From the sequence record NZ_CP064874.1: 64,000 bases of DNA. One strand, written 5' to 3'. This document shows, one piece after another, positions 1,825 through 30,271 of the stretch (the stretch's first letter is position 1; each line of letters begins with the position of its first letter). This DNA is from a plasmid. Position numbers and translations under genes: made by a program. The notes under the pieces are model-generated. The model saw only the letters and a program-made list of their open reading frames with translations, made no database searches and was not told where the DNA came from.

Positions 1825-1906
1825 CGCTCTCCGAGGTTGTTCGGGTGGTCGATTGAGACACTGACCGAACGTACACATAACGGCGTGCGGCTGTGGCAAC
1901 TTCCTG

Positions 1907-3592: not shown

Positions 3593-3924
3593 GCTGGCCG
3601 TACCCGACCGTCCGCGTCGATGGGACCGCGACGGTCGATGAGGAAGGGGAGAATCAGGTCTGCGCCTGTGGCAATGATTCGTGGACTCAGGACTGGCGGA
3701 GCGCCGATCGTCTTGGGCGTCTTGCCTTCGATGCTGCTGGTTCGGCCGACCCCGACGAGTTCGCGGTCTGCCCAGTGTGCGGCCGTGTGTATCCCAACGC
3801 TGCTCTGTTCCACGGCGCCGCGGCCGCGGTGGCTCGCTATGAGATCACTAGTGCCGAGTTCATTGCTGCGCTACAGCGGTATGACCACGACGCCTACGGA
3901 TCCGGCGGGTCGCTGACGAGCTGA
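3589..3924 (+). CDS. hypothetical small Cys-rich (zinc-ribbon-like) protein
   Basis: GTGA overlap with methyltransferase stop; CxC...CPVC motif; high GC3. Confidence 0.45.
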   Translation: MSWPYPTVRVDGTATVDEEGENQVCACGNDSWTQDWRSADRLGRLAFDAAGSADPDEFAVCPVCGRVYPNAALFHGAAAAVARYEITSAEFIAALQRYDHDAYGSGGSLTS

Positions 3925-3969
3925 GTCACGCGGTCGTCGTCGGCACGGGGCTGTCGGTGCGCCGGCATA

Positions 3970-4251
3970 GTGTTCGCTGTTGTGGTGCAGCACTGGTCTC
4001 CGATGTCTCAGCTGCAGGCGTCGCCGGAGCCGGGGATCTGGTACGTGTTCGACCACAGCAAGAGGATCGCGATCATCCGCCATGTCGAGATCCGCGGCCG
4101 TAGGCTGCTGCGTTCCGTGACGTTCGATCGCGATCCCGAGCGGCGAGTGTTGATCGGCTACTTCCCCGACGATGCAATGAGGCTCGCTGTCGAGTGCACC
4201 TGGTCGGAGTATGTGAGGGCGACTGGTCCACCGGTGAGCAATCGTCGATGA
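3970..4251 (+). CDS. hypothetical protein
   Basis: 93-aa ORF with coding-like GC3, no recognisable motif. Confidence 0.35.
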   Translation: MFAVVVQHWSPMSQLQASPEPGIWYVFDHSKRIAIIRHVEIRGRRLLRSVTFDRDPERRVLIGYFPDDAMRLAVECTWSEYVRATGPPVSNRR

Positions 4252-4409
4252 TCGCGTGCCACCGGGGCAAGAGAAAACGGCACCCGGCCGGAGCGTGGAA
4301 ATTGTCACATTCACCAACGATCCAACTGAGGAGGAGCCATCGCCCCGAGGGGCGGAAGGGAACCTGCTCAACAGCCGGGTGCCGCGCCTTAGTGTACCGC
4401 GCGGGGCGG

Positions 4410-4685
4410 TCAGAGCGGGGTGGATTGGAGGAGCTCGTCAGCGACTCGGTCGAGCAGCTGAGGGGTGAGCTGCTCGTGGCGTCCTGCGCGCTTTATGGCG
4501 TCGATCGTCGCGAGGATCGTGGTGTGCGCGTCCGGTGCAGAGGGGATGGTCTTCTGTGCCTGTCGGATGCGTGCGCTGAGCTCAAGGATCGCGGTCTCGT
4601 CGCGTTCATTGTTCGCGTAGCCGGCGGCGAGCTCGAGCGACTTGTGTAGCAGGCGGGTCTCGGTGGTGGTGAGCGGTGCGGTCAT
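4410..4685 (-). CDS. hypothetical protein
   Basis: 91-aa ORF, 4-bp overlap with the upstream ORF 4682..4966; followed by GC-rich hairpin 4375-4408. Confidence 0.45.
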   Translation of the reverse strand: MTAPLTTTETRLLHKSLELAAGYANNERDETAILELSARIRQAQKTIPSAPDAHTTILATIDAIKRAGRHEQLTPQLLDRVADELLQSTPL

Positions 4686-4966
4686 CGTGTCCTCGTGTTC
4701 AGGAGATCTGCGGTCAGTCGGGCGAAGCGTGTGTCGACGTCGCGCTGGTCGGGGAGATCGACGTCGGCCGCGATGGGTCGGGCGTCGTAGAAGTGGTGCC
4801 GGATGACGCGGCCCCGGTGGTCGACCAGGCCCTCACCCTCGCCCTCGATCGGCTCGAGCAGAGCGACGATGGTGACGGCGAGCTCGCGTGCTGTCGCGCG
4901 CTCCCGGATGAGGGCATGATCTCCGAGGCGCAGTGCCGGCCACGCAGTGAGCTCGGGGTCGGTCAT
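4682..4966 (-). CDS. hypothetical protein
   Basis: 94-aa ORF translationally coupled to neighbours (4-bp overlaps both sides). Confidence 0.45.
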   Translation of the reverse strand: MTDPELTAWPALRLGDHALIRERATARELAVTIVALLEPIEGEGEGLVDHRGRVIRHHFYDARPIAADVDLPDQRDVDTRFARLTADLLNTRTR

Positions 4967-5208
4967 GAGGGTGTTCCTTCCTTGCTTCTGGGGGAGGAGC
5001 GGCGTAGCCGCCGAGCGGATTTGGGGAGGGGTTCGTTGCGAGGCAGCTTCGCGAGGCGCCAGTCATCGCGGACGGCGATCGCGGCGGCGAAACAGGTCAT
5101 GAGCGTGGGGTGGTGGTGGTTGGCGCATCCGGCGCGGGTCTGACATCCGAGGTCGTAGCCCTCGGGGCTGCCGTGGATGATCTGTCGAGCGACCTCGTCG
5201 GAAAGCAT
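4963..5208 (-). CDS. small protein with HG-x3-GY-x2-GC-x4-GC-x-NH Cys/His motif (paralogue of 63227..63478)
   Basis: IHGSPEGYDLGCQTRAGCANHHHPTLMTC aligns with LHGTTAGYLAGCRSKGGCPNHGNRQLLTC of ORF 63227..63478. Confidence 0.5.
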   Translation of the reverse strand: MLSDEVARQIIHGSPEGYDLGCQTRAGCANHHHPTLMTCFAAAIAVRDDWRLAKLPRNEPLPKSARRLRRSSPRSKEGTPS

Positions 5209-5218
5209 GGCCTGGTCC

Positions 5219-5629
5219 TCAGTCGAAGCTGGCGTCGATCAGGAGGTCGAGCGCGTCGGCGAGCTCACGGAGCCTGTAGCTGCGTCGACCGGCGATGACG
5301 TGGCCGAACAGGTTGACGAAGTGCAGCTCGCGAGTGGTGGTGTCGGCGACGGCGACGGTATGGACGTCGTGAGCGTCGATGTACTGCCAGCTGATGATGT
5401 AGTTGCGGCCGGCGACGTGCGCTTGAGCCCAGCGGAAAAGCAGTGCACCGAGCGGACCATCTTCGGATGCGCGGGTCGAGTAGGGGTCGGCTGGCACGAT
5501 CGCGTCGACGGAATGGAAGCCGACAGAGGAGCGGGAGATCTCGTAGCTGTCCAGCGGGATGTCGAGGAAGAGATCGTTGTAACGGGTGCCGGTGTCATCG
5601 GTGATGACGATGTTGTTCAGAGTGCTCAT
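5219..5629 (-). CDS. hypothetical protein
   Basis: ORF 5219..5791 trimmed to internal Met MSTLNNIVITDD (start at 5629). Confidence 0.45.
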   Translation of the reverse strand: MSTLNNIVITDDTGTRYNDLFLDIPLDSYEISRSSVGFHSVDAIVPADPYSTRASEDGPLGALLFRWAQAHVAGRNYIISWQYIDAHDVHTVAVADTTTRELHFVNLFGHVIAGRRSYRLRELADALDLLIDASFD

Positions 5630-5655
5630 CGTTGTCAGTCCTCTCGGGTGGGGGG

Positions 5656-6378
5656 TCATGCGGCGCAGCTGGCGAGCTGCGCGCGGAGCGTGGAGTAGTC
5701 GGCCGGGTTGACCGTCAGCTGGTAGGCGGTGAGGACGTCGACGAAGCGCGCAGCGTAGGCGCATCCGTAGTCCGCGTTCGGGGGCATCCATTCGGAGGGG
5801 CCGCGATCGCTCTTCGACTGGTTGGTGCTGCCGTCCGTGGCCTGCAGATTGAGAGGATCGTTGGCGAAGCGCTCACGCTGGGCCTCGTCCCATTCGTCGG
5901 CGCCCTGACGCCACCCCCACGCGAGCGGCACGACATGGTCGATCTGCACGAGCTCACTCGTGCCCTGGCCGCGCTCGAAGGCGATCGTGAGCCCGGTGTA
6001 AGGGTCGTGAAGCGTTCCGGTGAGGACGACGCAGTCGTGTGTGCCGGGCTTGGTGGTGATGTTCTCGAGCGCGGCCGCGAGTGCGTCGTTGCGCTGGTCA
6101 CAGCCGTTGCGGTCGATGTCGGCCCAGCGTTGCCCGAACGCGTCACGGTCGTAGCTGTCCTGGTCGGCTGCATCGGCCACGACGAGCTGCTCGAGCTCAT
6201 CGAGGGCTGCGGCGGCGTCCGCGGAGATCTCTGCGGTAGGCACAGGCACAGGCGCGGGCGCGGTGTCGGTGAGGTCGCTGACGCCGGAGGGCTGGCTGGT
6301 GATCGCGATCGCGCCAGCGAGCAGGGCGACGACAACAGCGCCGGCGGCGGAGGCGAGGCGTGTGGTTCGGCGGTTCAT
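5656..6378 (-). CDS. secreted DUF1524 / HNH-like nuclease-domain protein
   Basis: ORF 5656..6864 trimmed to MNRRTTRLASAAGAVVVALLAGAIA (signal peptide) at 6378; C-terminal IDHVVPLAWGW ... GSTNQSKSDRGPSEW resembles GmrSD C-terminal/DUF1524 nuclease fold. Confidence 0.6.
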   Translation of the reverse strand: MNRRTTRLASAAGAVVVALLAGAIAITSQPSGVSDLTDTAPAPVPVPTAEISADAAAALDELEQLVVADAADQDSYDRDAFGQRWADIDRNGCDQRNDALAAALENITTKPGTHDCVVLTGTLHDPYTGLTIAFERGQGTSELVQIDHVVPLAWGWRQGADEWDEAQRERFANDPLNLQATDGSTNQSKSDRGPSEWMPPNADYGCAYAARFVDVLTAYQLTVNPADYSTLRAQLASCAA

Positions 6379-6389
6379 GAGTGGTCCGT

Positions 6390-6593
6390 TCAGAGGAAGA
6401 GGGCGGCGCCGAGTACGACGGCCGCGGCGACCGCGGCGACGCTGAGGAGAAGGGTGACGAGGAACTTGAGGCTGCGCCGTACCGTGCGCTCTGCGCGGCG
6501 TGCAGTGTCGACGGTGACGAGGATGCCGACGAGGCCGCCGCTGCCCAGCAGAAGGGGAGCGAAGTCGCGGGCGGTAGACAGGGCGAGATCCAT
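6390..6593 (-). CDS. small membrane protein
   Basis: 67 aa, two hydrophobic helices; RBS GGAGGAACCC; immediately downstream of motif-2 copy. Confidence 0.45.
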   Translation of the reverse strand: MDLALSTARDFAPLLLGSGGLVGILVTVDTARRAERTVRRSLKFLVTLLLSVAAVAAAVVLGAALFL

Positions 6594-6617
6594 GGGTTCC
6601 TCCGGGGTATTCGTCTA

Positions 6618-6651
6618 GGGGTATAGGTCGCAGTTCGGGGTGTTCGCGGAC
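6618..6651 (-). promoter_or_regulatory. motif-2 copy a: TGTCCGCGAAC-N16-TATACC (minus-strand reading), putative promoter
   Basis: plus strand GGGTATAGGTCGCAGTTCGGGGTGTTCGCGGACA; lies between terminator hairpin 6661-6690 and RBS of 6593 gene. Confidence 0.55.
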
Positions 6652-6660
6652 AGAGATTCT

Positions 6661-6690
6661 CGGGGGCGGGCATAGGCGAGCCCGCCCCCG
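6661..6690 (-). terminator. GC-rich hairpin after gene 6698..7573
   Basis: CGGGGGCGGG-N10-CCCGCCCCCG inverted repeat directly 3' of stop at 6698. Confidence 0.5.
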
Positions 6691-6697
6691 AGGGCTG

Positions 6698-7573
6698 TTA
6701 CGCGGCCGCGGCCTGGTCGTCGGCGCCGAGCATGGCGTCGGCGATCGCGTTGACGGCACGGAGGACGTTGCCGGCGACGCTGCGGATGAGGTCGACGTCA
6801 CCGCCGGCCCATCCTGCGACGTACCCGATCGACCACGCGGACGTGTCGAGTCCGAGGAGGCCACCGGCGCAGTACGCGACCGACTCGGCTTCGGTCTCGA
6901 TCACTCCGCGGTGCTCGCGGGTGCTGCCCTCGTCGAAGTGCAGAAGTGCGTGACCGATCTCGTGCAGGAGGGTCTTGACGCGCATGGCCGGTGCCATCTT
7001 GCTGTCGACCCGGATCTGTCGGGCCTGGCCATCGGTGTACCCGTTGAGCCCGTCCTGTGCGATGTCCTCGAGCGCGACATCCCAGCCCTGCGCGGTGATG
7101 AAGTCGGCGAGCTGGTCGAAGAGGCCTGCGACGTCGTCGCCCTCGAGGTAGATGGCCGGCTGCTCGGGGAGCGGCTCGCCATCGGTGTCGCGGACGTCGA
7201 ACACGGAGAGCACCGGGTAGATCACTCGACTGCTGGTGGACTCTTCTCCGGTGGCCTCGTCGACCTCGACGATCCGCTTGGTGGAGTAGCCGAAGATCTT
7301 GATCGACTTCGCGCCCTTGACGACGTGACGGCCGAGGGTCTCCCACTGGCGGTAGCCGAGGCAGTGGGTGCCGCCCTGCGCGAGGATGAGCATCTGGTTG
7401 GAGAACGAGCGCCGGCGGACGATGCGCGCGAAGCGCAGCCAGGCCTTCCAGTTCTCGCTCTCGGCCAGCGTGGCGACCTGTGCGGTGAGCTGCTCGTGGA
7501 GCGCCTCGGCCTGTGCGCGGCGCTCTTCCGGGGTGCGGCGGGTGGTGCCGCTGCGGCGGGTCTTGGTGGTCAT
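6698..7573 (-). CDS. ardC: ArdC-like antirestriction protein (ssDNA-binding N-domain plus zincin-like metallopeptidase HExxH)
   Basis: ORF 6698..7660 trimmed to MTTKTRRSG (RBS GGAGGA); N-terminal DUF1738-like block; LLHEIGHALLH zinc-peptidase motif. Confidence 0.7.
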   Translation of the reverse strand: MTTKTRRSGTTRRTPEERRAQAEALHEQLTAQVATLAESENWKAWLRFARIVRRRSFSNQMLILAQGGTHCLGYRQWETLGRHVVKGAKSIKIFGYSTKRIVEVDEATGEESTSSRVIYPVLSVFDVRDTDGEPLPEQPAIYLEGDDVAGLFDQLADFITAQGWDVALEDIAQDGLNGYTDGQARQIRVDSKMAPAMRVKTLLHEIGHALLHFDEGSTREHRGVIETEAESVAYCAGGLLGLDTSAWSIGYVAGWAGGDVDLIRSVAGNVLRAVNAIADAMLGADDQAAAA

Positions 7574-7599
7574 GGTGTCCTCCCTCAGAGTGGACGAGT

Positions 7600-7647
7600 A
7601 GTGAATGTGACATTCACTAGTATGAGGCATTCGATATGCCCCGTCAA
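7600..7647 (-). promoter_or_regulatory. promoter/operator copy 1: TTGACG-N17-CATACT followed by 19-bp palindrome AGTGAATGT-S-ACATTCACT
   Basis: Operator at 7600-7618, about 27 bp upstream of ATG 7573; -10 at 7619-7624, -35 at 7642-7647 (minus-strand sense). Confidence 0.7.
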
Positions 7648-7678
7648 CTCCGATTTGCACCCGCCTGCAGCGGGGGTC

Positions 7679-8632
7679 TCAGCCCGGAAGGATGTCGGTG
7701 GCGGCTTTGGGGTACGCGGTGCGCGGCAGCCCGATCGGCAGCCGGCGACGCTGGGAGCTGCTGCCAAGAGGGAAGGCGTATCGGAAGTTCCCCGGATGCC
7801 TGATCTTCGTGACATCGAGCGCGGCGAGCGCCTCGCGCAGCCAGGCTCGCGGGTCTTGCCCTGCGCGGCGGATGGGGGCGCCGAGCGAGACCAGGTGTCG
7901 CTCGGCGGCGTCGGCGCCTCGCTCCTGTCCTCTTACCTTGGACAGAGATCTCTCGGAGAGCACGAGGCCGCGGCGGGGGAGGTAGTTCAGGGTGCGTGCG
8001 GTGCTGCGGCCGAGGGCGATCGCGTTGACGCTTTGGTATATCCCGCCGATGTGGCCGGGCGAGGTCTGTTCGATGCGCTCGATTGTGGTGCCGTTGTCGA
8101 GGGTCTCGGTGATCTGTCGGCGCCGTGGCAAGGGGTCGGCGAAAGAGACGACGCCGCGGATGCCCCGGTCGTAGGCGTGGCGGAAAGCGCGTGCGAGGAA
8201 CCAGGATTCGGCGTTCGCGGGTGTGTCGGTGAGTACGAATCGGCCGAGCTCGATGCTCTGTTCGTAGGGCTCGAGCGTGCCGAAGACGGAGCTGAGGACT
8301 CCTCTGCTCATCGGGGTGGAGAAGGTGGCGACGCCGACCAGTGCCATCTCGTCGACCATGGCGCCGTTGATGGGGAAGCGGTCGTCGCGGGTGAGCAGCC
8401 CGATCGAGAAGCGTGCTGCGGGGAAGGATGCTGCGTAGTGCTCGTCGATGACGAATGCTCGCGCGGCGGCTTCCGTGATCGGGGCCACCTGGTATAGACG
8501 GGGGTCGAACCCGCCTTCGGAGATGTGGCGCCACGAATGGGCGCCGCGAGACCAACGCTGGCAGTAGTCGCTCGCGGGGGAGGAGGGCGGCTCGGCCGGC
8601 ATGAGTACCGGCCGAGCGTTCAGGGTGGGCAT
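7679..8632 (-). CDS. hypothetical protein
   Basis: ORF 7679..8701 trimmed to MPTLNAR at 8632, 5 bp after stop of upstream gene; no confident family assignment. Confidence 0.5.
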   Translation of the reverse strand: MPTLNARPVLMPAEPPSSPASDYCQRWSRGAHSWRHISEGGFDPRLYQVAPITEAAARAFVIDEHYAASFPAARFSIGLLTRDDRFPINGAMVDEMALVGVATFSTPMSRGVLSSVFGTLEPYEQSIELGRFVLTDTPANAESWFLARAFRHAYDRGIRGVVSFADPLPRRRQITETLDNGTTIERIEQTSPGHIGGIYQSVNAIALGRSTARTLNYLPRRGLVLSERSLSKVRGQERGADAAERHLVSLGAPIRRAGQDPRAWLREALAALDVTKIRHPGNFRYAFPLGSSSQRRRLPIGLPRTAYPKAATDILPG

Positions 8633-8636
8633 GAGG

Positions 8637-8960
8637 TCAGATCTGCGCAGCGATCGCGCGGAGCTGCTCGTCGACGTCGGGGGCGACGTCGATCCACTCA
8701 CCGGTCCTGGGGTGCAGCCCGACGATGAGCGCGGTGCTGAACAGCAGTGCGCTGCGGCCGTGCTCGGTCAGGTAGAGCGAGGCGAGCAGGTTCGGCTCTG
8801 TGACCTTGAGACCGGCTTCCTCGTCGACGAGCAGTGCGTGGCCGTTGGTCAGGCGGAGCTCTGCGACCCAGCCGCCGATCTCGCGCTGGTAGTCGGGCAG
8901 CTCGTCGATGCGGATGGTGTCGATCTCGCCAGCGGGGGTGATCTTGATGGCCGTTGTCAT
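8637..8960 (-). CDS. DUF3846-like protein
   Basis: 107 aa; pattern GEIDTIRIDELPDYQREIGGWVAELRL...LLVDEEAGL matches DUF3846 proteins common in actinobacterial phages/ICEs; RBS GGAGGAC. Confidence 0.5.
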   Translation of the reverse strand: MTTAIKITPAGEIDTIRIDELPDYQREIGGWVAELRLTNGHALLVDEEAGLKVTEPNLLASLYLTEHGRSALLFSTALIVGLHPRTGEWIDVAPDVDEQLRAIAAQI

Positions 8961-8985
8961 GGAGTCCTCCTCAGATCAGAACGGT

Positions 8986-9034
8986 AGTGAATGTGACATT
9001 CACTGATGGTACGCGGGCGACGTACCCTCGTCAA
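8986..9034 (-). promoter_or_regulatory. promoter/operator copy 2: TTGACG-N17-TACCAT plus palindromic operator
   Basis: Operator 8986-9004 immediately upstream of RBS/ATG 8960; -10 9006-9011; -35 9029-9034. Confidence 0.7.
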
Positions 9035-9044
9035 CCGCCGTGGA

Positions 9045-10448
9045 CTAGAGGAGTGCTGAGTCGACGCGGCAGCACTTCTGCTGCGCATAGGGGCGTTCAC
9101 TCAGCGGCATCCAACCCGGTTCCCTTCGCCGAATGAGCCGGGGATGCCCGGCTTCCCCCTCCGTGGTCATGTGGGGGCCGGCGTTGGTCCAGCAGTTCTG
9201 CGCGCGCGTCTCGCACCACAGCGCGAGCCGCGCTTCGCGGGGGAGGCAGGCACGATGTGTCCACCAGGCGCGCTTCTCGCCGTAGGGTCCGAACTGGTGG
9301 CCCTCGCTGTGCGCGATCGCGTCGTGGACGGCGCGGAAGACGTCGTTGGCGAGCATCGGCGCCCGCTCGCCCGTGGGCAGGGTGACCGTAACGCTGCGAG
9401 CCATCGGATGATCCGGCGGAAGGGCCCCCTCGCTGTGCTGCGAGACCTCGGTGCGGAAGTAGAACAGGTGCTTGTTCTCGCGGAGATCGGCCAGCATCGC
9501 GGCAGAGTCGGCGTAGGGTTGCTCGGTCTCGCCGTGCCAGGGCTCGAAGGTGTAGCCGGCTTCTGTGAGCATGTCCCACTGAGCGCCGATGTGCTGCCGC
9601 AGTGATCGGTAGGAGCGGGCGACCTGCGGGTGCGCGGGCTCGTGCGGTGCGGCCGCGTATGCCCTCGCTGCAGCGATGTCGTCGAGCTCGGTCAGTCGGG
9701 GGATCGGCGTGCGCTGTGGGAAACCGTGCGCATCGGCGTACCGCTCTCTGAGCGACTGGATCTCCTTGATCGGCTGGTGGTGACGGTAGCTGTCGTTGCC
9801 GGGCACGAAGGCAACGTGCGCTCGAGCGAAGGTGGGTTCTGTTCCGAGACGGGCGGCGATCGCGTTCACGGCGGATGCCGGCAGCGGATACTCGGCGGGT
9901 TCCGCGATCTCGAGCTTGCCGTCATAGAGCCTGCCTCCCGGTGCGCCGGCGGCGCGGAGAATGTCGAGGGTCTCCTGGACCTGCTGCTGCGAGCCGGTGC
10001 CGGCGGCGAAGCTGTAGACCCGGTCGGGGCCGTCAGCGTCGAAGTACCCGGCCATGATGCTGTCCTGCTCATACCGCCCCGCCAGCTCGCCGGCCCAGTC
10101 GGTGACCTGCTCGAAGCTGTCCGCGTGGACGATGTAGGCGCCTGCAGGCTCCGACGTGCCCTCCCAGAGCCCGTCCGCGTGCTGCAGCTCGGAGATCTCG
10201 ATCCCGTGACGTTCCGCGGCCGCGCGCAGGGTGTCTTCGTACTCGATCCACTCGTCGGTGTCCCAATAGCTGGGGCGCGAGCTCATCCGCATCAGCTCGC
10301 CCGAGACCGGCCGGAACGGGGTCGCGCCGATGAAGGCCTCAAGCTGCTTCTCGGCGTTCCGCTCGCGCTTCTCGGCGCGGCGACGCCGCTGCCCTTCGGC
10401 CGTCGACGACGGGCACCGCCGCCCTCCGTGGTCGATGTCGTCGCACAT
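9045..10448 (-). CDS. hypothetical protein (467 aa)
   Basis: ORF 9045..10580 trimmed to MCDDIDHGGRRC at 10448 (RBS GGGAGAGG); no recognisable domain. Confidence 0.5.
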   Translation of the reverse strand: MCDDIDHGGRRCPSSTAEGQRRRRAEKRERNAEKQLEAFIGATPFRPVSGELMRMSSRPSYWDTDEWIEYEDTLRAAAERHGIEISELQHADGLWEGTSEPAGAYIVHADSFEQVTDWAGELAGRYEQDSIMAGYFDADGPDRVYSFAAGTGSQQQVQETLDILRAAGAPGGRLYDGKLEIAEPAEYPLPASAVNAIAARLGTEPTFARAHVAFVPGNDSYRHHQPIKEIQSLRERYADAHGFPQRTPIPRLTELDDIAAARAYAAAPHEPAHPQVARSYRSLRQHIGAQWDMLTEAGYTFEPWHGETEQPYADSAAMLADLRENKHLFYFRTEVSQHSEGALPPDHPMARSVTVTLPTGERAPMLANDVFRAVHDAIAHSEGHQFGPYGEKRAWWTHRACLPREARLALWCETRAQNCWTNAGPHMTTEGEAGHPRLIRRREPGWMPLSERPYAQQKCCRVDSALL

Positions 10449-10469
10449 GGCCTCTCCCGTTCGTCTGCT

Positions 10470-10503
10470 GGGTATAGGCCGGGGTTGGGGGTGTTCGCGG
10501 ACA
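10470..10503 (-). promoter_or_regulatory. motif-2 copy b
   Basis: plus strand GGGTATAGGCCGGGGTTGGGGGTGTTCGCGGACA, preceded (in transcript sense) by hairpin 10510-10537. Confidence 0.55.
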
Positions 10504-10558
10504 GAAATCGGGGCCCCGCCGGTCGGCAGGGCCCCGATGAGGGCGGCATGGTCAAACG

Positions 10559-10687
10559 TCAGCCGTTGAGCTCCTCCCACACCTGGTAGGCGCGGTGAAA
10601 CTCCGGGCTGTCATCGTCGCCGTCACGCACGAGCTGGTCGAGGTACTCGTCGAGCTCAGCCTGGGAGAGCTGGCGGGGATCCTTCAT
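10559..10687 (-). CDS. small acidic hypothetical protein (42 aa)
   Basis: MKDPRQLSQAELDEYLDQLV... in-frame tail of ORF 10559..11065; 4-bp overlap with upstream gene end. Confidence 0.3.
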   Translation of the reverse strand: MKDPRQLSQAELDEYLDQLVRDGDDDSPEFHRAYQVWEELNG

Positions 10688-10962
10688 CCTTCGGCTCCCG
10701 CCTCGGCAGGCGGGCAACTGCACCGTGCACGCGGCCGCGAACCGTTCCAGTTCCCGACGTAGAACAGCGCGCACGGCCATTCGTGCTCGCCGCGGCGCCG
10801 CAGCCTGGGGACGGTCACCGTGAGCTCGCTGCCCAGGCTCAGCGCGTCCATGATGTCGTCCGCGATGTAGCCGGCCTCCTCGTCCGCCTCGTCCGTGTGC
10901 TGCTGGATCGTGCGCACGATCGTTGCGCGCACGTCCAGCGTGACGGTCGGCGATGCCTCGTT
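10684..10962 (-). CDS. hypothetical protein
   Basis: ORF 10684..11268 trimmed to MNEASPTVTL at 10962 (ATGA overlap with upstream membrane protein gene). Confidence 0.4.
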   Translation of the reverse strand, partial: NEASPTVTLDVRATIVRTIQQHTDEADEEAGYIADDIMDALSLGSELTVTVPRLRRRGEHEWPCALFYVGNWNGSRPRARCSCPPAEAGAEG

Positions 10963-11318
10963 CATCGGGTGTCCTCGTCGGGGTCCACACGCTGGATCGC
11001 CTCGTGCAGGCGGGCCAGTCGGTCCTCTCGCACGATGATGACGAAGACCACCGCAATGCCGGCAAGAGGCAGGAGCACGATCGGGGCGGGGACCACGATC
11101 ACCACGCCGACAGCGAGCAGCACGATCGGCAGGATCACCCTCAGCGTTGCGCGGCGGTGCTGACCGAGCTCGTTCCTGATGCGATCCTTGATGACCCCGT
11201 CCTGCTGTGCGAAGGCGGTGGCCGGGTCCGAGGAACGCAACATGCTCCGGATTGCGCGAGTTGTCCACTCGCTCAGCGTGCGCTGATGCCGATCCCTACT
11301 ACTCTCACGCCCGGTCAT
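10962..11318 (-). CDS. membrane protein, hypothetical
   Basis: 118 aa with two long hydrophobic helices (ILPIVLLAVGVVIVVPAPIVLLPLAGIAVVFVII). Confidence 0.5.
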   Translation of the reverse strand: MTGRESSRDRHQRTLSEWTTRAIRSMLRSSDPATAFAQQDGVIKDRIRNELGQHRRATLRVILPIVLLAVGVVIVVPAPIVLLPLAGIAVVFVIIVREDRLARLHEAIQRVDPDEDTR

Positions 11319-11806
11319 CGCGTGTACTCGCTCGGGGACGGGATCGGCAGGTCAGGATCGCGGATCTCGTACTGCCGGTCCTCCACGTAGGCCGCGTACT
11401 CGTCTGCGAAGTCGTATGCCTCGGCCTCGCTGTGCCCTTCCTGGCGCGCATGATCGAACGCGCTCCGCCACGGCTGACCGGTCGAATCGAGCGGCGGGTA
11501 CAGGCGGTCGATCAGCACCTGATTCGCAGCGTCGTCGATCCTTCCGCGAGCCTCGGCGTCGGCGATCGCTCTCGCAGTCGCATGTGTGCCGTCTCGCAGC
11601 CGCGACAGATCACTCGAAGAGGGCACCACCCGCGCATAGGTGCAGTCGTCCCACCGGCAGTAGGTGGTCGTCTCCTCTGGCGTGAGCGGGCGGGGAGTGA
11701 CGCTCACCAGCGCGGCGCCGCGTCCGCACACGGGGCATCGTCGAGCCTCCGCGCTGCGGACACCAACGCCGCGGCGATGGGCTGTGTTGTTCCGGCGCTC
11801 GGTCAT
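11315..11806 (-). CDS. hypothetical zinc-ribbon protein
   Basis: CPVCG ... C..DDC motif; 4-bp overlaps with flanking genes. Confidence 0.5.
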   Translation of the reverse strand: MTERRNNTAHRRGVGVRSAEARRCPVCGRGAALVSVTPRPLTPEETTTYCRWDDCTYARVVPSSSDLSRLRDGTHATARAIADAEARGRIDDAANQVLIDRLYPPLDSTGQPWRSAFDHARQEGHSEAEAYDFADEYAAYVEDRQYEIRDPDLPIPSPSEYTR

Positions 11807-12024
11807 CGCTCGCTCCCGCTCTCGTTGGGCGGGTTGGTGATGATGAACCCTGTGCCGGCGTCGGGCTGGTCCTGGCGCAGTCCGACGATCTCGGTGTCGG
11901 TCGCGTCGGTGTCGTTGAGGGTCTGAGCGAGCAGGTCGGCGTACTCGTCCGCGGTGAGTGCCTGGACCGCGGCGGCGTCGGTGACGTCGACGGGCTTGCC
12001 GTTGACGTGGAAGATGCGGGTCAT
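11803..12024 (-). CDS. hypothetical protein (73 aa)
   Basis: ORF 11803..12588 trimmed to MTRIFHVNGK with RBS GGAGAG. Confidence 0.4.
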   Translation of the reverse strand: MTRIFHVNGKPVDVTDAAAVQALTADEYADLLAQTLNDTDATDTEIVGLRQDQPDAGTGFIITNPPNESGSER

Positions 12025-12071
12025 GGGGTTCTCTCCTGCTGATGCGTCGTGGTGTCCATCCTCGTCGTGGG

Positions 12072-12371
12072 TCAGCGGAGGTCGAGCTCGACGCTGTCGG
12101 CCTCGAGGTCGGGGATGGTCTGGGCAGGGTGGCTGAACGTGACAGCCGGGCCGTGGACGATTACACGGTCGCCGCGGTGGGTCGTCAGCCGGAGCATCTC
12201 GGCGAGGATCCCGTTGGCGTGGACGTTGTATGAGCCGGCGTCGGTCTCGACGCGGAACCCTACGCGCGCCTGACGGTCGGTGAGTCGGCGGACGAGGGTG
12301 AGCGGTGTGCGGACGGTTCCTGCGATGGTGACCGCGGTGCCCGTGGGGGCTGCGGCCTGGGTGATGGTCAT
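12072..12371 (-). CDS. hypothetical protein, possibly OB-fold/SSB-like
   Basis: MTITQAAAPTGTAVTIAGTVRTPLTLVRRLTDRQARVGFRVETDAGSYNVHANGILAEMLRL loosely resembles actinobacterial SSB N-terminal OB fold; RBS AGGAGACAGG. Confidence 0.4.
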   Translation of the reverse strand: MTITQAAAPTGTAVTIAGTVRTPLTLVRRLTDRQARVGFRVETDAGSYNVHANGILAEMLRLTTHRGDRVIVHGPAVTFSHPAQTIPDLEADSVELDLR

Positions 12372-12392
12372 GGCCTGTCTCCTCAATCAAAT

Positions 12393-12445
12393 AGTGAATG
12401 TGACATTCACTGACTATACGCCTGCGAGTCTGGTAGGGGAACCCC
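12393..12445 (-). promoter_or_regulatory. promoter/operator copy 3: -10 TATAGT plus palindromic operator
   Basis: Operator 12393-12411 is 21 bp upstream of ATG 12371; -10 at 12413-12418. Confidence 0.65.
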
Positions 12446-12477
12446 CGTGCCTGACTGTGCCGCAGGCCCTTCTTGCT

Positions 12478-12511
12478 GGGTATAGGCCGGTCTTGGCGCT
12501 GTTCGCGGACA
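12478..12511 (-). promoter_or_regulatory. motif-2 copy c (here upstream of operator copy 3)
   Basis: plus strand GGGTATAGGCCGGTCTTGGCGCTGTTCGCGGACA. Confidence 0.5.
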
Positions 12512-12535
12512 CCCGAGTTGCGAAGATCGGTGAGG

Positions 12536-12778
12536 TTAGTCGTCGATGCTGCTGTCGGGTTCGTCACACGCGCCACTGTTGATGGCATCGACGCCGGCTT
12601 TCGTGAGCACCCAGCCGGGTTCGACCCATGAGTAGCGCTCGATCAGACCGCGCCTGCGGAGAGACTGGATGGTGCCACCGGGAATCCCCAGGCCTGTCGT
12701 ATCGAGGTAGCTGGCGCCACCGGAGGGGGACCGGCCATCGGCGATCATCCGCATGGTGACCCGCTGCGACCAGTTCAA
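12536..12778 (-). CDS. putative winged-helix DNA-binding protein
   Basis: GGTIQSLRRRGLIERYSWVEPGWVLTKAGVDAI resembles a recognition helix plus wing; candidate regulator. Confidence 0.35.
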   Translation of the reverse strand: MNWSQRVTMRMIADGRSPSGGASYLDTTGLGIPGGTIQSLRRRGLIERYSWVEPGWVLTKAGVDAINSGACDEPDSSIDD

Positions 12779-12814
12779 CGGCGGGGCCTTCTTGCGGCGG
12801 TTGAGCTGTCGATG

Positions 12815-14092
12815 TCAGGCGGAACGTGCGAGCTGCGCAGCGGAGGCGGTCGGCTGCAGCGCGAGGAGCCGCTGCGCCTTCGCTGCTTCGATCTCGCCCG
12901 GCAGCTCTCCCTTACGAGCGCCGGAGCGGCCGTAGAGAAGGACTTTCACGCCGGTCTTGGAGGCCTGCGCTCGGTCGGCGATCTCGAGGATGGTCATGCC
13001 GGAGGCCATCAGTTGTCGGACGTGCCGGCGAACGGGGTCAGCGGGCACGCGCGGGGCCTGCGGGGCGATGCCGGCTTCCCGCCGCCGGCGTCGCTCTTCG
13101 GTCAGCGATGCGTCGGCGCAGGAGATCTCGGCAGGGCATTGATCTCGGTCCTTGCAGCCGAGCTGGTAGCCGTAGGCGGTCCCGTGGTGTTCGGCCGGGA
13201 TGCTCTGTTCCTTCCGGTTTGCCATCCACTGCCGGTGATACTCGCGGCCCGCCTCGATGCACTCCGGTCGATCGCAGCCACGCGCCCGGCAGGCGTTGGT
13301 GCCGTGCGGCTGCAGCTGCCGCGGTCGGGAGACGCGAGGGGCCCGCGGGGTCTGCGGCCGCGGCATCCGCGGCCTGGCCGGCGGTGCCGGGCGATCATGC
13401 TTCGCGAGCTCGTCGACTGCTGCCTGATGCCTGGCGGTGGCGTCCTGCAGAGCACGCTCGATCACGCCGCCGACCGATAGGCCGCTTCCGGCGGCGATGG
13501 TGGCCGTCTTGAGCGTCTCGACCGCGGAACGCAGCTGGACGCGCAGATCCCGGTGGTCGCTGCGCCACTGTGCGAGCTCGTCGACGTGACGATCCAGCGC
13601 TGCTTCGTAGCCGTCGACCGTCTCCGCGAACGTGCTGGCACGCTCGACGGGGAGCGTCTCGGCCGCGAGGCGGGCCTTGTCGATCCACTGATAGCCAGGA
13701 TGCGTGCGCGTCCTCAGCAACGTCGGTCGCGGGGTCGCGATCCTCAGCGGCGCCGTCTTCGGCGGGCGGGCGGGCCGTGCTGTCGGTGTGCGCTTCGAGG
13801 CCTGCTTGGGTCGGCGGGGCTGCGTGGCTTCGGCCGCGGCCCGGCGCTCTTCTCGAGCGGCGATCTTGTCACGCTGCCGGGACTGGTCGCGTGCGGCTGC
13901 GTCGCGCTCGAGGATCTCCGCAAGGGGCGTGCCGGCGTCGATGAGCTTCGCGAAGGAGAAGTCGCCGGCATAGCGGGTGTGGATGGTGCGGCAGGGGATG
14001 AGCGCGGGGCACGCTGCAGTGCGGCATCCGCGGCGGTACCCGTCCGGGGTGCCGTGCGGGAAGCTGTCGTCGAGCAGGTCGAGGGTGGACAT
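12815..14092 (-). CDS. multi-motif protein: three copies of HGT-x2-GY-x2-GC-x5-C Cys/His motif plus C-terminal HTH
   Basis: ORF 12815..14293 trimmed to MSTLDLLDDSFPHGTPDGYRRGCRTAAC (start 14092); further copies HGTNACRARGCDRPEC and HGTAYGYQLGCKDRDQCPAE; C-terminal GMTILEIADRAQASKTGVKVLL HTH-like. Confidence 0.55.
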   Translation of the reverse strand: MSTLDLLDDSFPHGTPDGYRRGCRTAACPALIPCRTIHTRYAGDFSFAKLIDAGTPLAEILERDAAARDQSRQRDKIAAREERRAAAEATQPRRPKQASKRTPTARPARPPKTAPLRIATPRPTLLRTRTHPGYQWIDKARLAAETLPVERASTFAETVDGYEAALDRHVDELAQWRSDHRDLRVQLRSAVETLKTATIAAGSGLSVGGVIERALQDATARHQAAVDELAKHDRPAPPARPRMPRPQTPRAPRVSRPRQLQPHGTNACRARGCDRPECIEAGREYHRQWMANRKEQSIPAEHHGTAYGYQLGCKDRDQCPAEISCADASLTEERRRRREAGIAPQAPRVPADPVRRHVRQLMASGMTILEIADRAQASKTGVKVLLYGRSGARKGELPGEIEAAKAQRLLALQPTASAAQLARSA

Positions 14093-14103
14093 CACGTTCG
14101 GCC

Positions 14104-14565
14104 TCAGTAGCGCAGGAGCTTCGCGGTGACGAGCGACAACAGCGCCGCCCGTTGCGGAGAGTTGAGGCGGGAGAAGTGCGCGCCCAGGGTGTCCAGTGCT
14201 GCGGTGAACTCGGCAGGCAGCCCGTCGAGATCCCGCTTGACGCGCCGCTCGTTCGCGTCGCGCTGCGCCTCGGCCTGATCGGTCACACGCCACTCGTCGG
14301 TGGCCGCGCGGTCGGCATAGGCGCCCGTGATCCGTGGCGCATGCAGCCCGCGGGTGTAGAGCGAGTTCGGCTCGTCGATCGGGCGAGTGATCGTGATGAT
14401 CGCGCCGACCGGCGCCGACGTGTACGGCTTGTACGAGCCGAGCTCCTTGTCGGAGATCTCGCCGTCGACGAGCGTGCGGTACCAGTGCGCGAGCTTGCCA
14501 TTGCCCGCCTGCCTGCGCCCGACGTAGACGACATCCTCAGTGACGGTCTCTGCCGATTCGCTCAT
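14104..14565 (-). CDS. hypothetical protein
   Basis: ORF 14104..14580 trimmed to MSESAETV, RBS GAGGAG; operator copy 4 about 30 bp upstream. Confidence 0.5.
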   Translation of the reverse strand: MSESAETVTEDVVYVGRRQAGNGKLAHWYRTLVDGEISDKELGSYKPYTSAPVGAIITITRPIDEPNSLYTRGLHAPRITGAYADRAATDEWRVTDQAEAQRDANERRVKRDLDGLPAEFTAALDTLGAHFSRLNSPQRAALLSLVTAKLLRY

Positions 14566-14593
14566 GGGCGATCTCCTCAATCAATCAGAAAGT

Positions 14594-14642
14594 AGTGAAT
14601 GTGACATTCACTGATACTAGAGAGGTTGCAGCGTTCTCGCAA
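14594..14642 (-). promoter_or_regulatory. promoter/operator copy 4: TTGCGA-N16-TAGTAT plus palindromic operator
   Basis: Operator 14594-14612; -10 14615-14620; -35 14637-14642. Confidence 0.7.
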
Positions 14643-14826
14643 CCGTCGTCGTCGTCGTCGCCGAAAGTCGAGAGCGCTGCCTGTCGGCGGGCACGGTGCG
14701 CATGGGCTCATCACGAGGCGCTTCGATCTCGAAGCCGCACGCGCCGCAGCTGTGCAGTCCGACGCCATCGACGTCGTCGGATGGGATGTACATGGTGGTG
14801 GGCTCTTCGCACATCAGGCAGCGCAT
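14617..14826 (-). CDS. small zinc-ribbon protein (69 aa)
   Basis: MRCLMCEEPTTMYIP...HSCGACGFE; in-frame tail of ORF 14617..15129. Confidence 0.4.
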   Translation of the reverse strand: MRCLMCEEPTTMYIPSDDVDGVGLHSCGACGFEIEAPRDEPMRTVPADRQRSRLSATTTTTVARTLQPL

Positions 14827-14846
14827 GGTGATCTCCGATCGTGTGG

Positions 14847-15311
14847 TCAGGCGGTAGCCGCCGGGGTGATCTGCTCGACGGTGGCTGAGTAGCCGCGGTG
14901 GGAACCCCAGGCGGCGGCGATGCGGTCGGCGACGTCGCGGTCTTCGCCGAGGTAGGGGCGGTATCGCTTGCCTCGCGGGTCGGTGATGACGACCTGGACG
15001 ACGCCGGAGGGCTCGCGCACGGTGACTCGGGCAGCAGGGATTGGGTGGGCGTGGACGCGGCCGGCGATGATGAAGGTCGGGTACAGATCGCGTGCGAGCT
15101 CGGGGGAGCGGAACACGTCGTGGACCCATGCCGTGATGGCGATCGCGCCGGCAGGACTGAACCCGATGAGGCGGGCGGGGAGCTGCTCGAGCCCGGAGCG
15201 GACGAAGTAGTGCTCGTCGACGAGTATCGGCGCCGGCGGATGCAGAGACCGCTCGTCGTGGGCGGGGTAGATCGTCAGGCTGGTGCGGCTGTTCATGAGG
15301 CGCTCGTTCAT
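14847..15311 (-). CDS. hypothetical protein
   Basis: ORF 14847..15515 trimmed to MNERLMNSRTSL (ATGA overlap with upstream gene). Confidence 0.45.
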   Translation of the reverse strand: MNERLMNSRTSLTIYPAHDERSLHPPAPILVDEHYFVRSGLEQLPARLIGFSPAGAIAITAWVHDVFRSPELARDLYPTFIIAGRVHAHPIPAARVTVREPSGVVQVVITDPRGKRYRPYLGEDRDVADRIAAAWGSHRGYSATVEQITPAATA

Positions 15312-16078
15312 GCGGTGCGGCGGATGCCTACGGCGATGATGTGCGCCTTGGTGGGACGGGAGTAGAAGCCGAAGCTGTCGTCGTCGTCCGAGGCGGAGAC
15401 GGTTGCGGTGAATGCGACGACGTCGCCGCGCGTCGCGGAGGAGATCTCGGAGGGCTTGGTGCCCCACACGCGCCAGCCTTCGCCCTGGACGAGGATCTTG
15501 ACGGTGATGCCCCACTGGGTGTCGGTGGTCTTGGTTGCGAGGATCTCACCCTGGATGAGGGTGCGTCCCGTGGGGACGGGGCGGCGCGCTGCCAGCTCGC
15601 GCTCGAGCTGCTCGAGCAGCTCGTGGGCAGTGCGGACCTCATCGGCGTCGAGGGTGCCGGTGGAGTCCTCGAGCGAGTCGAGGAGGTAGCCGATCTTCTC
15701 GCGCAGCGGGTTGCCCTCCCGGATGCTCAGATGAGCTTCGGTGAGCTGGTCGCGCAGGCCGGGGTGCTCGGCCTCGAAGGCAGCGCGACGGGCGGTGATC
15801 GCGCGCGTCGTGTCGATGTGCTCGGCGTGCGCCTTCGCGTGGGCGCGGGCGGTGGCGCGAGCGCTGCTGACGAGCCGGCTGCGAGTGCCGGTGCCGTGGC
15901 AGTCGAAGCAGATCGGGCGACCGTGGCCATCGGTGAAGTGGGTGGGCCCGGTGTACAGGCCGGTGCCGATGCACTTGCCGCAGGTGTCGGTGATCCGCTC
16001 GGAGCCCTTGCGGCCGGGGAAGGGGTCGACGTAGAAGTCGTGCCAGTCTGCCGGTGCGGTGGTGTCGATGCTGTCCAT
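15308..16078 (-). CDS. hypothetical protein with N-terminal zinc finger (CGKC...CFDC)
   Basis: 256 aa, RBS GGAGGA; preceded by motif-2 copy d. Confidence 0.5.
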   Translation of the reverse strand: MDSIDTTAPADWHDFYVDPFPGRKGSERITDTCGKCIGTGLYTGPTHFTDGHGRPICFDCHGTGTRSRLVSSARATARAHAKAHAEHIDTTRAITARRAAFEAEHPGLRDQLTEAHLSIREGNPLREKIGYLLDSLEDSTGTLDADEVRTAHELLEQLERELAARRPVPTGRTLIQGEILATKTTDTQWGITVKILVQGEGWRVWGTKPSEISSATRGDVVAFTATVSASDDDDSFGFYSRPTKAHIIAVGIRRTA

Positions 16079-16098
16079 GGGATCCTCCGATGCGTCTG

Positions 16099-16133
16099 TG
16101 GGTATAGGCCGCGGATCGTTCTCTTCGCGGACA
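16099..16133 (-). promoter_or_regulatory. motif-2 copy d
   Basis: plus strand GGGTATAGGCCGCGGATCGTTCTCTTCGCGGACA; hairpin 16147-16179 just upstream in transcript sense. Confidence 0.55.
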
Positions 16134-16342
16134 TGAAGGGGAAGGTGCGGGGGCGGCTATGTCACGGAGCCGCCCCCGCGGCGGCGACCTGGTTGGGAGG
16201 ACGGCGGTCGCCGTGAGGGACGGAGCGAAGAGCGCGGCGAGCGCTCGTCAGGCTGCGGTGTGGCGCCTGTCCCTGGGAGGGGAACGGCGTTGCGCGGTTC
16301 CCCTGGCTGTGGGTCTGTGGGGTCTCCCTCTACTCAGTTAGT

Positions 16343-16389
16343 AGTGAATGTGACATTCACAGAGTAGGGGGTTTCTGCGTGCGGGTCAA
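16343..16389 (-). promoter_or_regulatory. promoter/operator copy 5: TTGACC-N17-TACTCT plus operator; no ORF for about 190 nt downstream
   Basis: Operator 16343-16361 (18/19 match), -10 16361-16366, -35 16384-16389; transcript would run through a structured leader to hairpin 16147-16179. Confidence 0.6.
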
Positions 16390-16417
16390 GCGTCGATCTT
16401 GTAGGGATCTTTCTGAA

Positions 16418-16469
16418 ATGTCCATTTCGCAGTTGAAATGTCCACGCGATGTCCATATGGACATTTCGG
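16418..16469. repeat. about 50-bp direct repeat copy 1 containing TGTCCA iterons and palindrome TGTCCATATGGACA
   Basis: ATGTCCATTTCGCAG...ATGTCCACGCGATGTCCATATGGACATTTCGG; second copy at 18093-18143 with 3 mismatches. Confidence 0.7.
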
Positions 16470-16601
16470 ACGCCGGCCGACCGTCGCGATCATGTGGGCG
16501 GCGGTTTCACAGCGCCTCAGCTTCTCTGCTGGATCGCGGCTAGCGCCCGGGTATTGTCGGCACGATGCCGTTGCCGCGTATCCGTTGTTGAAGGGGTGAG
16601 T

Positions 16602-17255
16602 ATGTCTGCTGTTGTTGCGCGACTTGACGTGGACCTCACGGATATTGAGTGCATTGTGAAGGTCACGCGGCCACTGGTCGGAGTACCGGACTCCGTGAAC
16701 TGGACGGAGTTGCCGTCGGGCGTCGCGAAGATCTCCGCTGACGCGACGTTGTACATCTTCGATGACGACGACGAGGGGGAGCCGGAGCGTCGTGTCATCG
16801 CGCGCGCTACTGCGTACACCGTCGACCTCGACCGGGTGGGTGACGTCGTTGACGTGTTCGATCAAGTAGGCGGCGAAGCATTCGAGATCACCGAGTCGAT
16901 TCTCGGTGATGAGAACGTCTTCGAGTGGCTCGACTCCCGCGATCCGCTGGTTGGCGAGCAGGTGTCGCAGCTCGTGATCGTCGAGGGCGTCTTTGTGGAG
17001 CCACCGTACCGGGGTCAGCGCCTTGGTCCACGTCTGCTCACGACGCTGGTGGAGACGGTGACCGGCACGGGGAGGGAGACTCTCATCGTTCTCCGCGCGC
17101 AACCGGTGCCGTGGGAGCACCTGTCCGAGATCGAGTTTCGGCGCTCCCGAAAGAAGGTCGCTGCGTCGTACGAAAGCGTCGGGTTTGCGCACTTCCGGGA
17201 CAACATCTATTGGCGTCACAACGCGTTCGTCGGGACCGAGAACCTCGAGGCGTGA
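16602..17255 (+). CDS. GNAT family N-acetyltransferase
   Basis: ORF 16449..17255 trimmed to MSAVV (RBS AAGGGGTGAG); LVIVEGVFVEPPYRGQRLGPRLL matches GNAT motif A (R-x-x-G-x-G/A). Confidence 0.5.
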   Translation: MSAVVARLDVDLTDIECIVKVTRPLVGVPDSVNWTELPSGVAKISADATLYIFDDDDEGEPERRVIARATAYTVDLDRVGDVVDVFDQVGGEAFEITESILGDENVFEWLDSRDPLVGEQVSQLVIVEGVFVEPPYRGQRLGPRLLTTLVETVTGTGRETLIVLRAQPVPWEHLSEIEFRRSRKKVAASYESVGFAHFRDNIYWRHNAFVGTENLEA

Positions 17256-19897: not shown

Positions 19898-19983
19898 GGG
19901 ACTCCAGGCCCGGTAGCCGGGGAACGACTGGGCCCGGCCGGTGAAACCATGCGCCCACTCGGTGAGATCGTCCAGCCGCCCCC

Positions 19984-26114: not shown

Positions 26115-26131
26115 GCCCGGCGGCGTGCTGT

Positions 26132-26682: not shown

Positions 26683-26785
26683 GTATTCAAGTGTACGTCG
26701 AACGGCCGACAATCGCGCTGGGCGTCTGTGGCTCGGGTTGCGGGGCTGCTGTGAACGTCACGCCGACGCGACGTGCTGCTGATGC

Positions 26786-30241: not shown

Positions 30242-30251
30242 TCTGGCCTCC

Positions 30252-30271
30252 CTCACGAGTCGTCTCGTGAG
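30252..30271 (-). promoter_or_regulatory. hairpin CTCACGAG-TCGT-CTCGTGAG just upstream of the relaxase RBS; candidate oriT/nic-region or regulatory structure
   Basis: 8-bp perfect inverted repeat 11 bp from GTG start; MobF oriT sites typically lie upstream of the relaxase gene. Confidence 0.3.

Follow-up and report, generated by a model that had tools for sequence, protein, structure and literature searches.

The closest described counterpart of the system analysed here is SigN (ZpdN) of the Bacillus subtilis plasmid pBS32, a plasmid-borne sigma factor that has a plasmid regulon and its own -35/-10 consensus, and whose promoters coexist on pBS32 with sigma-A promoters under repressor control (PMC6751061). 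Element-encoded control of transfer is also described for Tn916, in which Orf7 and Orf8 are positive regulators of the transfer genes (reviewed in PMC5812530). We analysed a 64,000-nt stretch of plasmid DNA (sequence record NZ_CP064874.1; called the window throughout), in which a 33-bp block is found upstream of genes in four copies between positions 6620 and 16133 and recurs on related Microbacterium plasmids. To our knowledge, little is understood of how actinobacterial plasmids that have type IV secretion systems switch on their conjugation genes, and our search of the literature on plasmid sigma factors in Actinobacteria found nothing matching. We propose that the blocks form a plasmid-specific promoter class, which is probably read by a plasmid-encoded divergent protein of the sigma-70 fold instead of the housekeeping sigma factor. 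The arrangement would resemble that of pBS32, with the sigma factor of a large plasmid serving its own promoter set beside repressor-controlled sigma-A promoters.

A pattern search of the window for TGTCCGCGAAC-N16-TATACC returned exactly four matches, all on the minus strand and all co-directional with the next gene. Those at 6620-6652, 10471-10503 and 12479-12511 had no mismatches and that at 16101-16133 had one (C11 to G), while 100 dinucleotide shuffles gave a mean of 0.12 matches and never four. The initial annotation had recorded the same four blocks at 6618, 10470, 12478 and 16099, that is, with coordinates off by 1-2 nt. The conserved unit consists of TGTCCGCGAA (10 nt), a variable spacer of 13 nt and GGCCTATACC (10 nt), 33 bp in total. 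The two G residues preceding CCTATACC lay outside every search pattern, yet the two positions were G in 65/65 and 62/65 unique instances, and the fifth base after the block was a purine in 58 of 65.

The 14.5-kb segment of the window that holds all four blocks (1883-16399) shares 86-88% identity with pYJNG, a plasmid of Microbacterium sp. YJN-G in which all four copies are kept at equivalent gene positions. Ten copies were found in pYJNG (148.6 kb), all of them intergenic and co-directional with the next gene on either strand, at 22-107 nt upstream of the start codon with one at 579 nt. They head the four units of the window and two additional small-gene units, a type IV secretion operon (TcpC-like, VirB4-like and M23 peptidase genes), the gene of an FtsK-like coupling protein, Flp/Tad pilus genes and a giant CHC2 primase-like gene. 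A metagenome scan then gave exact matches in 49 stretches, many of which contained two to four copies, adding about 60 sites. The window, pYJNG and the metagenome together yielded 66 unique instances that fell into about ten groups by downstream protein, all belonging to the plasmid backbone, with a block-to-ATG distance of 21-26 nt in three gene groups and 38-107 nt in the others. The sites were sharply discrete: in 475 kb, 68 sites matched the 20 core positions with 0 mismatches and 10 with 1, none had 2-4, and the background began at 5. The blocks were always 13 nt apart, and a spacing one base shorter or longer gave isolated 4-mismatch matches only.

Plasmid pAL1 of Arthrobacter had no copy of the pYJNG-type motif despite encoding a 52% identical homologue of the 467-aa protein that follows one of the window copies, indicating that the motif is specific to a sub-family. 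Absence from homologous elements, which the initial annotation had named as evidence against its own proposal, was seen only in distant relatives of this kind, namely pAL1 and the Microbacterium sediminis plasmid, the latter with an analogous, different motif. Full-text literature searches with the motif strings returned chance primer matches only, and no description of the motifs or of the protein family introduced below was found. The recognisable instances point to a promoter class specific to one family of Microbacterium conjugative plasmids. The conserved positions, the orientation and the invariant spacing support the earlier suggestion of a dedicated promoter class, read by an alternative sigma factor or activator and separate from operator-controlled promoters, and we consider it very likely that the 33-bp blocks are promoters.

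In such promoters, TGTCCGCGAA would be the -35 element, lying at about -37 to -28, and GGCCTATACC an extended -10 element at about -15 to -6 with the AT-rich CCTATA as its melting core. Two blocks at a fixed distance fit the -35/-10 geometry provided that CCGCGA and CCTATA are the centres of contact, with a spacer of 16 nt. The conserved purine 4-5 nt past the block would be the start site, and the resulting leaders, about 15-20 nt long, would include the Shine-Dalgarno sequence. The housekeeping -10 element TANNNT was not recognisable, as A at position 2 and T at position 6 do not coincide in any register of GGCCTATACC, and a sigma-70 scan called operator-type promoters only (9006-9034 and 7619-7647). 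Actinobacterial extracytoplasmic function (ECF) sigma factors read promoters with a GGAAC-like -35 element and a -10 element of the CGTC/CGT type. In the blocks, position 11 was C in 22 and G in 39 of 65 instances, so that AAC is not conserved, and the downstream block has no CGT.

The candidate reader is H7694_RS16945 of pYJNG, a 267-aa protein annotated as 'hypothetical', whose gene is divergent from the secretion operon that has a motif copy as its promoter; the PGAP annotation of pYJNG names no sigma factor. The C-terminus of the protein resembles sigma region 4. An AlphaFold (AF2) model built on homologues (pLDDT 80) has two helical domains with a disordered linker between them, and in this model the candidate shows the domain 2 and domain 4 folds, with a flexible segment connecting the two. 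The sigma structures listed with the model were SigB, RpoH, SigK and SigA domain 2, together with the ECF factors SigW, SigK and AlgU, and SigD and SigR were listed separately for domain 4. Among the sigma groups, the modelled candidate looks most like a two-domain ECF-type factor. None of 40 homologues (36-93% identity) had a Pfam domain, and a profile search of 1.84 billion representatives gave 823 clusters (50% identity) at E<=0.001, of which those sampled were 'hypothetical' and had no significant Pfam match. The gene order was the same in seven of seven further contexts, with the sigma gene divergent from the secretion operon and followed by parA and then the Tad locus. The sigma gene and the motif promoters occur on one replicon in pYJNG and in seven other contexts, and within the 64-kb window the promoters occur by themselves. 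The alternative sigma factor put forward in the initial annotation has thus gained a candidate, a sigma-fold protein encoded beside one such promoter in the relatives, with a motif that shifts as the protein diverges.

The leader of the sigma-like gene (L011:35337-35420 in pYJNG) was found to be conserved in the contigs L023, L024, L036, L044, L057, L067-L072 and L065. It reads CTGAGGA(A/G)CGTGGCCyTCGTCA ... ACGAAGGGCCATTTC-ATG in most of them, and the M. sediminis copy retains the 5' part only. The 3' arm of a hairpin in the leader holds the likely ribosome-binding site, and a conserved TT(T/A)TCC-N18-19-CTGAGG lies upstream. This arrangement suggests translational or other control of the putative sigma factor itself.

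We then compared the regions preceding the genes for secretion, pilin and the coupling protein with the identity of the respective candidate to the pYJNG protein. The exact motif, TGTCCGCGAA upstream and GGCCTATACC downstream, was present at 70-100% identity. At 60% identity the upstream block was still TGTCCGCGAA and the downstream block was GGCCTATATGAC; at 50% they were TGTCCGCGA(A/G) and CCCTATATGA, and at 39% TGTCCG(C/T)GAA and GCATATC. At 38% identity only TGTCCG was found upstream, with CACCTAT downstream, and at 35%, on the M. sediminis plasmid, TGTCGAC was followed after N18 by CCCCTwGTAGG. This last motif has seven copies on that plasmid, and its TGTC and CC..T transition lie at the pYJNG-type offsets. 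The predicted recognition helix of domain 4 was SRETLNRR wherever the -35 element keeps CG(C/T)GAA and TPATLSKR or TVAAMRKR otherwise, and both blocks shifted together across the plasmid lineages. Such a stepwise co-change of motif and protein is as predicted for a plasmid-carried reader and is difficult to explain by a shared host factor.

On balance, and on correlative evidence, we favour the sigma-like plasmid protein as the reader of the blocks. It would guide the core RNA polymerase to about ten promoters and thereby allow expression of the transfer backbone together with some of the anti-restriction region. Going by the motif positions, its regulon would comprise the secretion operon, the coupling protein, the Tad/Flp pilus, the giant primase-like gene, and anti-restriction and uncharacterised genes. 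We see about even chances for a wider reading, in which lineage-private and mutually orthogonal sigma/promoter pairs drive the whole transfer backbone, the sigma family is unannotated and mosaic plasmids carry two types. In that wider reading, the 823-cluster family would have a sigma-70 fold that escapes sequence models, its examined members lying beside type IV secretion genes of Microbacterium-type conjugative plasmids, and every lineage would have a nearly invariant promoter type of its own.

Several observations weigh against a plasmid sigma factor as the reader. If the hexamers were TGTCCG and TATACC, the spacer would be 21 nt, which is outside normal sigma-70 geometry. The Pfam matches were under the curated cut-offs (Sigma70_ECF with E=0.0064; Sigma70_r4_2 with E=0.0016, which belongs to the M. 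sediminis homologue, and 0.00011), and a profile search of PDB sequences with the candidate family found no sigma factor, so that it is the fold which carries the assignment. The sigma gene has no motif or operator in its own direction, and the self-activation typical of many alternative sigma factors was therefore not seen. No homologue of the candidate was detected in the window by tblastn or profile search, and no repeated motif was recognisable in the relatives L072 (46% identity) and L069 (37%). Furthermore, chromosomal copies of the motif, which would point to a host sigma factor, may exist, and the link drawn between the protein and the motif is a correlation among sequences.

A host alternative sigma factor, for example an ECF or group-3 factor of Microbacteriaceae, would tie transfer to a host signal and leave the plasmid sigma-like protein with some other task. 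The promoter features would be identical to those expected of a plasmid sigma factor, the candidate is missing from the window and from other fragments in which the promoters occur, and it is not confirmed as a sigma factor by sequence methods. However, the recognisable metagenome instances were all upstream of plasmid-backbone genes and none had an evident chromosomal context. The motif also differs at equivalent gene positions between pYJNG and the M. sediminis plasmid, within one genus, which fits a plasmid-carried reader, and it is unlike the actinobacterial ECF consensus GGAAC/CGTC. We thus regard a host factor as unlikely.

A further alternative is that the upstream block is the site of a plasmid activator other than a sigma factor, which would recruit the host RNA polymerase to a weak, atypical -10 element. 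The candidates are a 431-aa helix-turn-helix protein (12815-14110) and small helix-turn-helix proteins beside the giant primase gene. CGCG is central in the upstream block, three of the four window copies form a palindrome at 10 of 12 positions, and the promoters of the secretion operon and the coupling protein have an additional TCCGCGA immediately upstream (aTCCGCGAtgTCCGCGAag). Genes for several uncharacterised helix-turn-helix proteins lie in the neighbourhood, including one that follows an operator promoter, but none of the candidates has family or structural support. The near-palindromic upstream element TGTYCGCGRACA, from which the idea of a dimeric activator reading a palindromic -35 element had been drawn, did not hold up across the family: the extension by CA at positions 11-12, which makes up the dyad TGTCCGCGAACA (...AACA), was kept in only 10 of 65 unique instances, the conserved 10-mer is symmetric at 6 of 8 positions at best, and there is no relation between the downstream and upstream blocks. 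The window copies are near-palindromic by accident. Moreover, the downstream block is equally invariant, asymmetric and incompatible with TANNNT in every register, and the two blocks co-vary across plasmid lineages, all of which makes such an activator improbable. The preferred reader remains the plasmid sigma-like protein.

That the blocks are no transcription signals at all, and instead a structured RNA, a recombination, nicking, priming or partition site, or recently duplicated repeats, is very improbable: the near-invariance of the cores is unusual for ordinary promoters, and these plasmids carry a giant primase-like gene and a relaxase, but the orientation tracks the downstream gene on both strands and not the direction of replication or transfer, the distance to the Shine-Dalgarno sequence and the start codon is narrow in most gene groups, and flanks and spacers are unrelated between gene groups, which indicates that the copies are not duplicated segments. 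A structured RNA had been named at the outset as the finding that would contradict a DNA signal. RNAalifold predicted 0 pairs (0 kcal/mol) for 30 diverse instances and Rfam gave no match at E<=1 for window positions 4000-17000, and the structured-RNA alternative thus fails.

The initial annotation had also described each block as following a terminator-like hairpin. This applied to three copies, with stems of 12-14 bp and z-scores of -4.0, -4.5 and -3.8, and did not apply to the copy at 12479 (z = 0.02). None of the three hairpins had a T-tail in a scan for T-tail terminators, and an upstream hairpin was found in 26 of 65 instances overall; the hairpin belongs to the upstream gene and not to the motif.

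Two predicted promoter classes are interleaved on this DNA. In the second, operator-controlled class, the perfect palindrome GTGAATGTCACATTCAC comes immediately after a TAnnnT -10 element (TATAGT, TACCAT, TAGGCT and others), which in many cases has TTGAC 17 nt upstream. With this -10 element and adjoining operator the class is distinct from the block promoters, as had been proposed. Six operator palindromes were found in the window, at 7601-7617, 8987-9003, 12394-12410, 14595-14611 and 16344-16360 and, in degenerate form, at 4298-4314. The operator promoters precede the ArdC-like, DUF3846/Mom-like, 99-aa and 153-aa/431-aa units. About 30 are present in pYJNG; the M. sediminis plasmid and the contigs with secretion and Tad loci yielded none. 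These sigma-A promoters with a palindromic operator would constitute an independent, repressor-controlled layer interleaved with the sigma-dependent promoters, and a GntR-family gene of pYJNG possibly encodes the operator repressor. The 431-aa protein (12815-14110, minus strand), which lies behind a predicted operator promoter, contains the Cys-rich motif 'HGTxxGYxxGC' twice, has a helix-turn-helix-like segment at its C-terminus and had no match in Pfam, NCBIfam or PDB.

The four window promoters, all on the minus strand, have the following contexts. The copy at 16101-16133, TGTCCGCGAAG-N12-GGCCTATACC, is the predicted promoter of a 256-aa gene and the genes following it, with a predicted start at about 16096-16097. 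A 12-bp GC-rich hairpin on the same strand (16147-16179; minimum free energy (MFE) -30.4, z -3.84) ends 13 nt upstream of the motif and is probably the terminator, without a T-tail, of the upstream unit. The 256-aa Cys-rich protein (MDSIDTT...; 15308-16078, minus strand) is encoded by the first gene, the ATG of which is 22 nt past the motif. This copy has an orthologue in pYJNG at L012:47617 and five more in metagenome contigs.

The copy at 12479-12511, which is the one without an upstream hairpin, lies upstream of a sigma-A-like operator-controlled promoter, so that two promoters stand in tandem. It is 68 nt upstream of the operator GTGAATGTCACATTCAC at 12394-12410 (minus strand), which directly follows the -10 element TATAGT, and 107 nt before the ATG of the downstream 99-aa gene (MTITQAA...; 12072-12371, minus strand). 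Orthologues were found in pYJNG (L012:43345) and in L027, L038, L046, L037 and L062.

The copy at 10471-10503 is the predicted promoter, with a start at about 10466, of the gene for the 467-aa protein (MCDDIDHGG...; 9045-10448, minus strand), which has no assigned function and an ATG 22 nt past the motif. A 14-bp GC-rich hairpin (10507-10538, minus strand; MFE -32.8, z -4.51) ends 3 nt upstream. Eight distinct orthologues of this copy were found upstream of MCD(D/E)(I/V)DHGG proteins, and homologues of the 467-aa protein are encoded in pYJNG (94%), the M. sediminis plasmid (61%) and pAL1 (52%). The fourth copy, at 6620-6652, is the predicted promoter (start at about 6615-6616) of a unit comprising a 67-aa predicted membrane protein (MDLALST...; 6390-6593, minus strand; ATG 26 nt past the motif), followed by an HNH endonuclease gene (5656-6393, minus strand; annotated as such in pYJNG), and small genes. 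It is preceded by a 13-bp GC-rich hairpin that follows the ArdC-like gene and ends 6 nt upstream of the motif (6659-6692, minus strand; MFE -36.7, z -4.00), and its orthologues are in pYJNG (L012:37787), L015, L038, L045 and L055. In the copies at 6620, 10471 and 16101 the motif ends 12-16 nt before a GGAGG-type Shine-Dalgarno sequence and 22-26 nt before the ATG, in agreement with the earlier report of a ribosome-binding site close behind three of the blocks and of an operator downstream of the fourth.

Pfam and NCBIfam scans of the open reading frames (ORFs) around the motifs revealed no regulator, the sole match being a Mom-like domain, and the 256-aa, 99-aa and 467-aa proteins matched no family in either database. 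This domain (Mom of phage Mu DNA modification, PF25680, E 1.4e-17) is in a 317-aa protein (7679-8632, minus strand), whose gene adjoins the ArdC-like and DUF3846 genes. The genes near the motifs are mostly uncharacterised, except for the ArdC-like, Mom-like, DUF3846, HNH nuclease and MmeI-type methyltransferase genes, which together look like an anti-restriction cluster.

In pYJNG, a stretch of about 570 nt (L011:10150-10724) directly follows the motif upstream of the CHC2 primase-like gene and is conserved in L018, L021, L025, L032, L039, L052 and L058. A leaderless gene in this position, with an ATG 4 nt past the motif and a frame of 130-145 aa, was considered and rejected, since its codon-position GC contents of 0.58/0.64/0.65 are not coding-like. 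The stretch may be a long leader or another non-coding element.

Outside 1883-16399 the window is a mosaic, in which several blocks are 99-100% identical to the M. sediminis plasmid and one matches plasmid B of Microbacterium sp. No. 7. A promoter of the M. sediminis-plasmid type, TGTCGAC-N18-CCCCTTAGCAG, was found in one copy and with the same geometry at 62240-62275 on the plus strand, upstream of an ORF at 62343-63227 and in a block 99.5% identical to that plasmid. With this copy and the four of the pYJNG type, the segment mixes two promoter types. Since the window has no candidate sigma gene, its four pYJNG-type promoters would depend on a factor supplied by another part of the replicon or by a co-resident plasmid, and would be silent without it. 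Downstream of the 62240 promoter, and before the ORF, there is a sigma-A-like GTTCCA-N17-TATATT and then a different palindrome, GGTTATATTCGGGAATATAACC (62303-62324), so that positions 62240-62330 show the same two-layer layout as the pYJNG-type region with other sequences.

The mosaic also includes a MobF relaxase block (26000-31100, with TetR and RelE/ParE genes), which is 100% identical to the Rhodococcus pyridinivorans plasmid NZ_CP063451.1 while its neighbours are Microbacterium-like, pointing to recent exchange between genera. IS256 and IS5 copies are present in the window. Two identical IS256-family copies of about 1.5 kb (404-aa transposase; 19981-21495 and 56317-57831) lie in direct orientation and bracket about 35 kb, including the MobF relaxase and accessory genes, and a third IS256-family transposase (18551-19786) is at the border of the pYJNG-like block. 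A phage origin of the window was rejected, as megablast gave no match to 50,697 phage records and no tRNAs were found. A weak Sigma70_r4 match at 34466-35017 was attributed to a HicB-like antitoxin with a helix-turn-helix tail.

If the proposal is true, the transfer regulon of a plasmid family could be recognised simply from the motif sequence, and the candidate family would be a new branch of sigma factors missed by current annotation pipelines. It would also offer natural orthogonal sigma/promoter pairs for high-GC hosts. It would further account for backbone modules that, once moved by recombination, fall silent or come to depend on a co-resident plasmid; in the wider reading, recombination on mosaic plasmids could strand or rewire entire modules.

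Compared with known systems, the blocks share with housekeeping SigA/HrdB promoters the upstream position and an AT-rich element near -10, and differ from them in that TANNNT is absent from GGCCTATACC. The candidate differs from ECF (group 4) sigma factors in being longer (250-270 aa), with about 50 extra N-terminal residues, and in falling under the Pfam thresholds for Sigma70_r2, r4 and ECF; the blocks have neither the usual AAC -35 element nor the CGT-type -10 element, and no anti-sigma gene is evident for the candidate. Tn916, of which Orf7 resembles a sigma factor, shares a Gram-positive secretion system of the TcpC/VirB4 type and positive regulators downstream of a repressor-controlled step, but its transfer genes are expressed by read-through from one promoter after excision and not from about ten dispersed dedicated promoters. 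SigN of pBS32, which remains the closest described system, is recognisable by sequence and biochemically shown to be a sigma factor, whereas what supports the Microbacterium candidate is its fold. SigN is also LexA-repressed and self-activating, while the Microbacterium sigma gene has neither an operator nor its own motif. Finally, the two systems differ in host phylum, consensus and regulon, the latter concerning cell death in pBS32 and, by our proposal, conjugation and the pilus in these Microbacterium plasmids.

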